Assembly: GCF_048403405.1 (NCBI RefSeq)
Contig: NZ_CP183129.1
DNA length: 64,000 bases
Reading direction: 5' to 3' (one strand)
From: Escherichia coli
GTDB taxonomy: Bacteria > Pseudomonadota > Gammaproteobacteria > Enterobacterales > Enterobacteriaceae
Part shown: piece by piece, positions 6,653 through 8,058 of the stretch
Layout of the letters: the number at the start of each line of letters is the position of its first letter
Position numbering within the stretch: position 1 is the first letter of the stretch
The notes under the pieces: generated by a model
Seen by the model: only the letters and a program-made list of their open reading frames with translations
What the model was told of the DNA's origin: nothing
Database searches by the model: none
Position numbers and translations under genes: made by a program

Positions 6653-7666
6653 TTAAAATAGCATTTGAGTCAAATAGCCCATCAAGATAGCCATACCTAA
6701 GATAACCGTCAGGAATGCAACTATCATCGGCATTCTGAACATTGATTTAAGTAATATCACTTCCGTCAGGCTTGCGCCGGCACTGCCGATGATTAATGCC
6801 ATTAATGCTCCCAGACCCATTCCTTTTGTCATCAGAACAGCTGCCAGAGGGATAACCGCCTCTGCCCGGATATACAGCGGAATTCCGACAACGGCGCTCA
6901 ATGGGATGGCGAAGGGATTATCTGCCCCTGCATGAGCGGCAATCCACTCTGAGGGAATAAAGCCATAAATAAAAGAGCCTATTAATACCCCCAACAAAAG
7001 ATATGGCAGTACATCTTTAAACTGTTGCAACGCATCTTTGGTGGCTAGTTTTATGGGATTAATACTTACCACAGCTTTGGTACTGCAACAGGGAACTACG
7101 GGTTTCTCAATGGCTTTAGCCGCTGGACTACAGCAACTCACTTTTATTGGCATATATGTCGTCCCCGGCGAAGTTTTGGCTTGAGCACAACAATTTGCTG
7201 ATGAGCTTTTACTGGCAATGATATGACGTTCAAATCCCAGAGAATCCAGGATAATACTGGCAAGTACGGAGACGCCGGCGGCGATAATCGCGTACAACAA
7301 GGTAACTTTCCAGCCAAAGGTCACCCACATTAACCCGACGATAATGGGATTAAGTAATGGGGAAACAAATAAAAAAGTGAGGGTCGGACCAAACCCGGCT
7401 TTCGCTGATAACAATCCACGTAACATGGGGATTGTCGAGCAACTACAGAACGGGGTAACGGCTCCCAACAGAGCAGCCAGGAGATAACCTCTCCCTTTTC
7501 TGGCCCCCATCATCTGCTGGATTTTATGGTCTGGCACCTTTTGTCTTATCAGGCTCACACCGGCACTAATCACTATAAACAGCAAAGAAAGCTCAACGGC
7601 GAGAAACACAAACATCTCTGCGGCATCTTGCAGCATCGCAAGCCAACTACTCATACGTAACCTCAT
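6653..7666 (-). CDS. ArsP-like (DUF318 family) permease, putative organoarsenical efflux
   Basis: 337-aa polytopic membrane protein with the TPFCSCS motif (VTPFCSCSTIPMLRG) recalled as the ArsP hallmark, plus a Cys-rich central loop (..ANCCAQA..VSCCSPAAK..VVPCCSTK..). Not present at this position in K-12 as recalled. Confidence 0.7.
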   Translation of the reverse strand: MRLRMSSWLAMLQDAAEMFVFLAVELSLLFIVISAGVSLIRQKVPDHKIQQMMGARKGRGYLLAALLGAVTPFCSCSTIPMLRGLLSAKAGFGPTLTFLFVSPLLNPIIVGLMWVTFGWKVTLLYAIIAAGVSVLASIILDSLGFERHIIASKSSSANCCAQAKTSPGTTYMPIKVSCCSPAAKAIEKPVVPCCSTKAVVSINPIKLATKDALQQFKDVLPYLLLGVLIGSFIYGFIPSEWIAAHAGADNPFAIPLSAVVGIPLYIRAEAVIPLAAVLMTKGMGLGALMALIIGSAGASLTEVILLKSMFRMPMIVAFLTVILGMAILMGYLTQMLF

Positions 7667-7761
7667 TGAATAAATCTATATTTCCAGAATAATCGAAATG
7701 AAATTCAGATCAAGATATTTCTGGTATTATCGAAATATCAACCAGACAAAGGGGGTGTCAT

Positions 7762-8058
7762 ATGCAGTTGGAAGAAGTTGCTAAAGCGCTGAAAGAGCTA
7801 GGTCACCCGACCCGTTTGTTCATATTCAAACACCTGGTCAAAGCGGGGGAACAAGGTTTGCCGGTCGGTGAGTTGCAAAAGCAGCTTGGGATACCCGGCT
7901 CTACACTCAGTCACCATATTTCAGCACTGGTATCGGTAGGGCTGGTCAAACAAAACCGTGAGAGTCGAACGCTGATGTGTGTTTCGCAATACGCAATGCT
8001 GGAAGCGATAATTGAATTCTTACGCGAGGAGTGCTGCGTAAATAGCAAAATTGCCTGA
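7762..8058 (+). CDS. ArsR/SmtB-family metalloregulator (small, C-terminal Cys pair)
   Basis: 98-aa ORF divergent from the ArsP-like gene; winged-HTH region (..GSTLSHHISALVSVGLV..); lacks the ELCVCDL motif of canonical ArsR but has adjacent Cys91-Cys92 near the C-terminus (REECCVNS). Confidence 0.7.
   Translation: MQLEEVAKALKELGHPTRLFIFKHLVKAGEQGLPVGELQKQLGIPGSTLSHHISALVSVGLVKQNRESRTLMCVSQYAMLEAIIEFLREECCVNSKIA

Follow-up and report, generated by a model that had tools for sequence, protein, structure and literature searches.

A candidate arsenical sense-and-efflux module beside the ars operon of Escherichia coli: an ArsP-family permease divergently paired with an ArsR/SmtB regulator

The closest described relatives of the two genes considered here are an exporter of organoarsenicals and two arsenic-responsive regulators. 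The exporter, CjArsP of Campylobacter jejuni (TC 2.A.119.1.1), is encoded by the first gene of an arsP-arsR-arsC-acr3 cluster and exports methylarsenite, MAs(III), and roxarsone in its trivalent form; inorganic As(III) is not exported (PMC6205960). AfArsR of Acidithiobacillus ferrooxidans (6J05) is a type 2 As(III)-responsive regulator with a vicinal cysteine pair, Cys95/Cys96, and a further ligand, Cys102, whereas SpArsR of Shewanella putrefaciens is described in PMC11868830 and PMC13236881 as MAs(III)-selective through Cys101/Cys102 only, with no third ligand of the AfArsR Cys102 type. Here we examine a 64,000-nucleotide stretch of E. coli DNA (the window; RefSeq assembly GCF_048403405.1, contig NZ_CP183129.1), in which two intact divergent genes between yhiS and arsC encode a permease of the PF03773/ArsP_1 family and an ArsR/SmtB regulator of 98 aa. 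We propose that they form a repressor-controlled arsenical sense-and-efflux unit, an arsR2-arsP-type module, which is the best explanation of the sequence comparisons and one that we hold to be probable.

The pair has already been noticed at annotation level. E. coli operons drawn as "ArsRBCRP" and "ArsRDABCRP" from children's gut metagenomes (PMC5718612, Dong et al. 2017) include, in the former, the same chromosomal arrangement with its extra genes named ArsR and ArsP, and IncI plasmids carry the pair as ydaA/arsR2; both mentions stay at the level of annotation. A literature search for arsP together with E. coli likewise returned annotation-level mentions only and no experiment on the orthologous group of this module. 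RefSeq names the two products simply "permease" and "ArsR/SmtB family transcription factor".

An earlier sequence-only reading of the window had placed open reading frames (ORFs) at 6653-7666 on the minus strand and 7762-8058 on the plus strand, and we find both exactly there, in the order chuA-chuS-dctR-slp-yhiS-[permease]-[regulator]-arsC-arsB-arsR-dinQ-gor-rlmJ. Because both proteins match Pfam families and have large numbers of homologues (4933 proteins at E <= 1e-5 in the sequence search with the permease), these are genuine genes and not chance ORFs. The full permease ORF does encode 337 aa, as that reading gave it, but translation probably begins at Met5, with the ATG at 7654, to give 333 aa (6653-7654, minus strand): the first ATG (ATGAGGT; window 7652-7668) aligns with, and so overlaps, the AGGAGGT ribosome-binding site of orthologous loci. 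The RefSeq coding sequence in strain TUM14771, which is 100% identical to the window over the stretch tested, is also 333 aa long.

The permease matches Pfam ArsP_1 (PF03773) over model positions 3-293 of 294 (E 8.6e-53), and it aligns with CjArsP at 37% identity over 335 aa (E 2e-71, 213 bits; the CjArsP sequence, B5LWZ8, came from the supplementary FASTA of PMC7176098). The two proteins have in common the PF03773 domain, full-length homology, the motif TPFCSCSTIP in the second hydrophobic segment and a central hydrophilic loop with a CC (Cys-Cys) pair, and both genes adjoin ars genes. They differ in that the E. coli permease has three CC pairs and a longer loop and is divergent from its own regulator instead of heading a cluster. 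Identity to TC 2.A.119.1.4/5 is 39-40%; as a control, the K-12 PF03773 paralogue YraQ reaches only about 20% and 45 bits against CjArsP and has another motif. In a rough neighbour-joining tree the permease and its orthologues cluster with CjArsP and TC 2.A.119.1.4/5, and SO_0444, YraQ and A8VTI4 fall apart from this group. ArsP cluster 2 is recognised by a "tPF" directly ahead of the C(S/T)C motif that all these proteins have (PMC4435449; Yang et al. 2015), and this trait is found in the permease, whose membrane-embedded motif, TPFCSCS, lies at aa 71-77 of the 337-aa ORF (codons 7436-7456, minus strand), where the sequence-only reading had seen it; (I/V/L)TPFCSCSTI is present in 50/50 orthologues examined. 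On these comparisons we regard the assignment to the ArsP branch of PF03773, which the earlier label "ArsP-like" anticipated, as sound. Two other families, those of SO_0444 and SaoE, were rejected for the permease, both scores lying far under the NCBIfam cutoffs.

All eight cysteines of the permease lie in TPFCSCS or in the three CC pairs already reported for the central loop (about aa 146-215; 7022-7231, minus strand), at aa 159-160 (7187-7192), 178-179 (7130-7135) and 193-194 (7085-7090). The loop is Cys-rich in all 50 orthologues, varies greatly in length and carries zero to four CC pairs; a Cys-rich loop is thus the conserved trait, and the count of three pairs is peculiar to the allele in the window. 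Hydropathy and positive-inside analysis found both the first loop and the central loop rich in Lys/Arg, so no side of the membrane was assigned to the Cys-rich loop. The sequence-only reading relied on TPFCSCS and the CC-rich loop, and in this it went too far: because the CSC motif is common to SaoE and the SO_0444 family, and the SO_0444 loop holds six CC pairs, these motifs are not arsenic-specific, and the real evidence for a link to arsenic is the overall similarity to CjArsP.

Could the pair sense and export a thiophilic cation (Cu(I), Zn, Cd, Hg or Ag), as SO_0444 of Shewanella oneidensis (TC 2.A.119.1.6) does, and have reached the ars genes merely by travelling with them as cargo? SO_0444 belongs to the same Pfam superfamily, has a C-x-C in the equivalent membrane segment and a CC-rich central loop with multiple pairs, and represents the family, Cu/Zn efflux (NF033936), that is the top NCBIfam match of the permease, ahead of SaoE (NF040736). 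However, the scores are 111.3 bits against a cutoff of 300 and 89.9 against 325; identity to SO_0444 is 22-27%, in fragments only and at no more than 53 bits, compared with 37% over the full length of CjArsP; where the permease has TPFCSCS, SO_0444 has PLCSCG; and the predicted controller of SO_0444 is ZntR, a MerR-type protein, not an ArsR. We consider soft-metal efflux decidedly unlikely, a judgement that also takes in the regulator and the gene neighbourhoods discussed below.

The regulator gene (7762-8058, plus strand) encodes a 98-aa protein that matches Pfam HTH_20/HTH_5 and scores 61.9 bits with HTH_metalloreg, the general metalloregulator model of NCBIfam, above its cutoff of 55. Its best match among Protein Data Bank sequences (phmmer) is AfArsR (E 4.7e-10, 30% identity, ungapped), which also comes first in a Foldseek search (6J05, template-modelling score 0.89) with an AlphaFold2 monomer model of high confidence (predicted local distance difference test, pLDDT, 93; order a1-a2-a3-a4-b1-b2-a5). 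By sequence and predicted fold it is an ArsR/SmtB winged-helix protein of the AfArsR-like type, which bears out its earlier placement in ArsR/SmtB. The type 1 site ELCVCDL, found in helix alpha3 of R773 and E. coli chromosomal ArsR and carried by the neighbouring arsR (9963-10316), is absent, the equivalent stretch reading PVGELQKQLG. The only cysteines are Cys73 (codon 7978-7980) and the vicinal Cys91-Cys92 (8032-8037). The sequence-only reading was right about the missing ELCVCDL and about Cys91-Cys92 but overlooked Cys73, which is the most conserved of the three among 120 homologues plus the query (121/121, with Cys91 in 118 and Cys92 in 117). Cys73, Glu90, Cys91 and Cys92 are all invariant in a curated 28-sequence alignment (62-88% identity to the query), and about 10% of the homologues, chiefly from Vibrio, have a Cys at position 97.

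How might three such cysteines meet? In the gap-free alignment with AfArsR, its nearest solved relative by both sequence and fold, the pair at the end of alpha5 lands exactly on Cys95-Cys96, but nothing corresponds to Cys102: there is no Cys past residue 92, and the protein ends at 98, six residues beyond the pair. Conversely, AfArsR has a tyrosine at the position of Cys73. The monomer model puts Cys73 in strand b2 (residues 70-75), four residues before alpha5, and the pair directly after a5 (residues 77-90), that is, at opposite ends of the helix. In ArsR/SmtB dimers the a5 helices pack antiparallel, as at the a5 sites of SmtB and CzrA, so Cys73 could come near Cys91'/Cys92' of the partner subunit. 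A beta-sheet arsenic site has a precedent in ArArsR, which uses Cys80/Cys82. SpArsR, by its published description, is similarly AfArsR-like, with a vicinal pair and no Cys102-type ligand, but differs in that the regulator family considered here has a third invariant Cys elsewhere. Because Cys73 is invariant and ArArsR provides the beta-sheet precedent, the step from two cysteines to MAs(III) selectivity is unsafe, and the earlier argument from the vicinal pair alone to methylarsenite sensing is weakened.

A site with three thiolates could accommodate inorganic As(III)/Sb(III) or a soft metal, and so bears on two alternatives. For soft-metal efflux, the conserved thiolates could bind Cd, Pb or Hg, although the nearest solved structure belongs to a sensor of As(III) and has the vicinal pair too. 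They also suit three-coordinate As(III), as would be expected if the regulator were a three-Cys As(III) sensor and the permease an inorganic arsenite/antimonite exporter, either a stand-alone As(III) carrier or an alternative membrane partner of ArsA, duplicating the function of ArsB. Two points stand against such an exporter: inorganic As(III) was not transported by CjArsP, the one close relative that has been characterised, and the window has no arsA and already has ArsB. Together with the plasmid evidence set out below, this leaves inorganic arsenite export unlikely in our estimation.

The cysteines also raise the question of a thiol-stress or electrophile response, in which the regulator would respond to redox state or persulfide by forming a disulfide among Cys73/Cys91/Cys92, and what the permease exports would be a thiol conjugate or another sulfur compound. 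The regulator shows weaker similarities to BigR and YgaV, but reaches 38.5 bits with the BigR model, whose cutoff is 155. BigR-type sensors have one Cys of their pair in helix alpha2, where the regulator has none. The ArsR family does include an H2O2 sensor, RexT (PMC8960804). As no sulfur-oxidation genes recur near the 80 homologous loci described below, and as this explanation would leave the ars linkage unaccounted for, we judge it very unlikely. A BigR/YgaV-type persulfide sensor was rejected on its own account, for its low scores and differently placed cysteines.

The 95-nt intergenic region is organized as expected for an autoregulated divergent repressor-target pair, with two 20-nt dyad boxes, 37 nt apart, to which the regulator is predicted to bind. 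Box 1 (ATTTCCAGAATAATCGAAAT, 7680-7699) is permease-proximal and overlaps a promoter-like site on the plus strand (7666-7693); box 2 (ATTTCTGGTATTATCGAAAT, 7717-7736) is regulator-proximal, lies within a perfect 8-10-8 palindrome (7714-7739) and overlaps a promoter-like site on the minus strand (7741-7712). The operator-like boxes are related as direct and inverted repeats, and they are nearly invariant between diverged flanks in an alignment of five loci from four genera (the E. coli window, an E. coli plasmid, Aeromonas, Citrobacter and Salmonella).

We therefore picture an arsenical-responsive unit that would work as follows. A regulator homodimer would bind both boxes over the divergent promoters and repress its own gene and the permease gene, until a trivalent arsenical bound to Cys91/Cys92 at the end of alpha5, with Cys73 of the partner subunit as the probable third ligand, freed it from the DNA. 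The permease would then export the arsenical through its membrane-embedded Cys74-x-Cys76 pair, and its Cys-rich loop may serve as a substrate-gathering arm. Because of the homology to CjArsP, and because the plasmid-borne regulator heads an operon starting with arsH, the most likely substrates would be methylarsenite and aromatic As(III) compounds, with inorganic As(III)/Sb(III) as a live alternative; the module would thus complement ArsB, the handler of inorganic arsenite. Of the earlier proposal of an organoarsenical sensing and efflux unit, arsenical efflux is supported by homology and gene context; a restriction to organoarsenicals is plausible by analogy with CjArsP and from the arsH linkage, but is weakened by the third conserved Cys.

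Gene neighbourhoods elsewhere give this picture its context. A regulator-alignment scan with one genome per species confirmed relatives at at least 598 sites (598/600 checked), and 80 loci, with regulators at 59-91% identity, were kept. In 51/80 a permease of the same family is found no more than about 7 kb from the regulator, mostly directly beside it. The pair also occurs by itself, alone in other Aeromonas chromosomes and next to IS26 on plasmids, in keeping with the earlier view of a self-contained unit. Homologous pairs adjoin ars genes in at least five layouts: permease<>regulator-arsR-arsD-arsA-...-gapdh-arsJ-acr3-arsC in Aeromonas; arsRDABC followed by regulator<>permease in Citrobacter; arsH and arsRBC followed by permease and regulator in Buttiauxella; arsD-arsA-permease-regulator, and a second locus with acr3, in Endozoicomonas; and regulator-arsH beside arsRDABC in Hafnia. 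An exact-protein look-up added Salmonella, where the pair accompanies arsRDABC and arsH in a transposon-rich island. Because ars genes lie within 10 kb of 10% of the loci kept, in several unrelated layouts, against the roughly estimated 1% or so expected of random genes and ars operons at that distance, the association is real, though confined to a minority of loci. Soft-metal efflux fares less well by the same measure: ars genes adjoin the pair in at least five layouts, and no Cu, Zn, Cd or Hg genes recur beside it. As a separate observation, the Citrobacter arsRDABC genes and pair (L006-L008, about 2230-8092) sit as phage cargo inside a lambdoid prophage, flanked by replication genes (DnaT-like, lambda P-like) on one side and DinI/RusA/lysis genes on the other.

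The pair is also plasmid-borne: 647 plasmid records carry it, mostly conjugative Escherichia and Salmonella plasmids, and the plasmid copy shows about 84% nucleotide identity along the aligned query bases 822-1651. An IncI plasmid has the pair under the names ydaA<>arsR2, at the head of arsR2-arsH-sigZ-arsD2-arsA2, with ArsH confirmed (385 bits, cutoff 292). The IncI/pESI cluster shares with the window the same two genes, their divergent layout and the operator boxes, but the regulator in the window has no arsH, sigZ, arsD or arsA downstream. The ars region of the IncI plasmid also holds an ArsN1-like acetyltransferase gene of the arsinothricin-resistance kind (L094:13576-14112; 145 bits, under the cutoff of 210), which adjoins genes for a ModE-like regulator and a 270-aa membrane protein.

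These plasmids bear on inorganic arsenite as a substrate. The genes arsD-arsA directly adjoin the pair in Endozoicomonas, Aeromonas and IncI/pESI plasmids without an intact arsB or acr3, and a coupling of ArsA to ArsP has been proposed (PMC6205960). Salmonella Infantis strains with pESI-like plasmids (arsR2, arsH, arsD, arsA) resist arsenite and phenylarsine oxide, while arsB is missing from the plasmid and acr3 from the whole genome (PMC9219668); that study describes ArsA as lacking its usual partner and leaves the adjacent permease unmentioned. The link between plasmid and resistance is correlative, and on the plasmids arsR2 is followed immediately by arsH, whose product oxidises organoarsenicals, a point against a purely inorganic exporter. 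A broader proposal, which we regard as possible but doubtful, is that the regulator has a further, undescribed type of ArsR site formed between subunits by Cys91/Cys92 and Cys73', and that the permease, not limited to organoarsenicals, also provides ArsA with a membrane partner on IncI/pESI plasmids without ArsB or Acr3, which would explain the arsenite resistance.

Other neighbours recur mainly outside the ars context. A gene for a SigZ-type extracytoplasmic function (ECF) sigma factor directly follows the regulator homologue in 16/80 loci, mainly in Vibrio (including L031, L033, L039, L044, L046, L047, L049-L051, L061, L063, L078, L083 and L091, at about 10251-10853 in most). The Vibrio proteins end in a Cys-rich C-terminal tail (...LFE(E/G)CC...C...CxxC) that starts with the E-C-C signature of the regulator, and may be a second thiol-based sensor of the same response; with such tails they resemble metal-responsive CorE-like sigma factors, and in that respect favour a soft-metal role. 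More SigZ-type genes occur between arsH and arsD2 on the IncI plasmid (L094:9286-9831) and beside a second ArsP_1 permease in the Salmonella ars island (L010:357-899). A glutathione S-transferase-like gene comes after the SigZ gene in six loci (L083:10932-11666 and five others), and eukaryote-type glutathione synthase-like genes lie beside five regulator homologues (L052:8152-9663, L058:12517-14034, L074:3448-4902, L084:10435-11871 and L086:10584-12029). Both kinds of gene lend something to a thiol-stress response, and in marine gammaproteobacteria they hint at a link to thiol metabolism. Clustering of neighbours across the 80 loci for a universal partner besides the permease found that, beyond the SigZ-type genes and ars genes, recurrent neighbours are lineage-specific (LysR regulators, chemoreceptors, a PgpB-like phosphatase, ABC components). 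In several Photobacterium species (L021-L023 and L027, about 6900-10300) the regulator homologue follows a YfcC-like transporter gene and has no ArsP-type neighbour. The regulator family probably governs other targets in some lineages.

Several of these results weigh against an arsenical sense-and-efflux unit and should be set beside those in its favour. The best NCBIfam matches of the permease are SO_0444 and SaoE, though far below cutoff, and the CSC motif and Cys-rich loops are present in a Cu/Zn exporter as well. In 29/80 loci the regulator has no permease of the same family in the surrounding 7 kb or so, and ars genes lie within 10 kb in only 8/80, most loci, for instance in Vibrio, Photobacterium and Shewanella, having none, as soft-metal efflux would also have it. 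The Vibrio order of regulator, SigZ and glutathione-transferase-like genes would fit a broader response to thiophilic toxicants. Substrate and inducer are assigned from homology at 37% and 30% identity, respectively, and from gene neighbourhood, and the three invariant cysteines speak against strict methylarsenite selectivity of the SpArsR kind.

The history of the module in E. coli can be read from its distribution. At a coverage of at least 80%, it is present in 2221-2224 of 5426 complete E. coli genomes (about 41%), at 92-100% nucleotide identity, and it is absent from K-12-like strains and O157:H7 among these genomes; some strains keep arsC alone. The sequence-only reading stated that K-12 lacks the module at this position, and this is so, except that about 90 nt of the regulator 3' end remain right beside arsC in K-12 MG1655 (L095:4655-4900) and strain MIN9. 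The remnant, kept by K-12 and K-12-like strains (L095 and L092:2150-2412), corresponds by blastn and alignment to window positions 7970-8058 (plus strand), with the ECC codons decayed to EYC. Because this 3' remnant persists beside arsC, the module was ancestral at the locus and was deleted from K-12, not inserted in the strain of the window. A second, diverged pair (permease 73%, regulator 86% identical) lies elsewhere on the chromosome, with no ars gene closer than 10 kb, in CP089930.1 (L017, labelled E. coli strain E69; 8897-10285), which suggests that at least two module lineages circulate in Escherichia besides the plasmid lineage.

Could the module be cargo that is decaying or silent and no longer functions in this strain? 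Many lineages have lost it, including K-12, O157:H7 and some arsC-only strains, as silent cargo might be. Yet both reading frames are intact, 2221 complete E. coli genomes keep the pair at a nucleotide identity of 92-100%, the regulators of the 80 loci retain 59-91% identity, and the operator boxes hardly vary. We consider this the least credible of the alternatives, with hardly any chance of being right.

The surroundings of the module in the window include several features of their own. The canonical arsR-arsB-arsC operon (8181-10316, minus strand), identified from ORFs, NCBIfam and RefSeq annotation, is a neighbour outside the module. Between the regulator and arsC, at 8097-8134, lies a palindrome, GTAGGTCGGATAAGACGCG...CGCATCCGACA, like those of repetitive extragenic palindromic (REP) elements, and this stretch by itself matches further chromosomal sites in many E. 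coli genomes. On the other side, the yhiS homologue (4850-6073) is an intact 407-aa ORF in the window and is split by IS5 in K-12; RefSeq tags it as frameshifted in TUM14771, the strain identical to the window, and it matched no NCBIfam family.

In conclusion, E. coli K-12, the standard host of arsenic-resistance genetics, has lost a module that is carried by about 41% of complete E. coli genomes and by hundreds of conjugative IncI/pESI plasmids of poultry-associated Escherichia and Salmonella, whose annotation goes no further than "permease" and "ArsR/SmtB family transcription factor". If the module does export methylarsenite or aromatic arsenicals such as roxarsone metabolites, many enterobacteria of the gut and food chain would possess an organoarsenical defence of their own that goes unreported in standard annotation. 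The regulator, which combines three invariant cysteines with two defined predicted operators, would be a compact candidate part for biosensors, and it may add a new arrangement to the independently evolved arsenic-binding sites of ArsR proteins.

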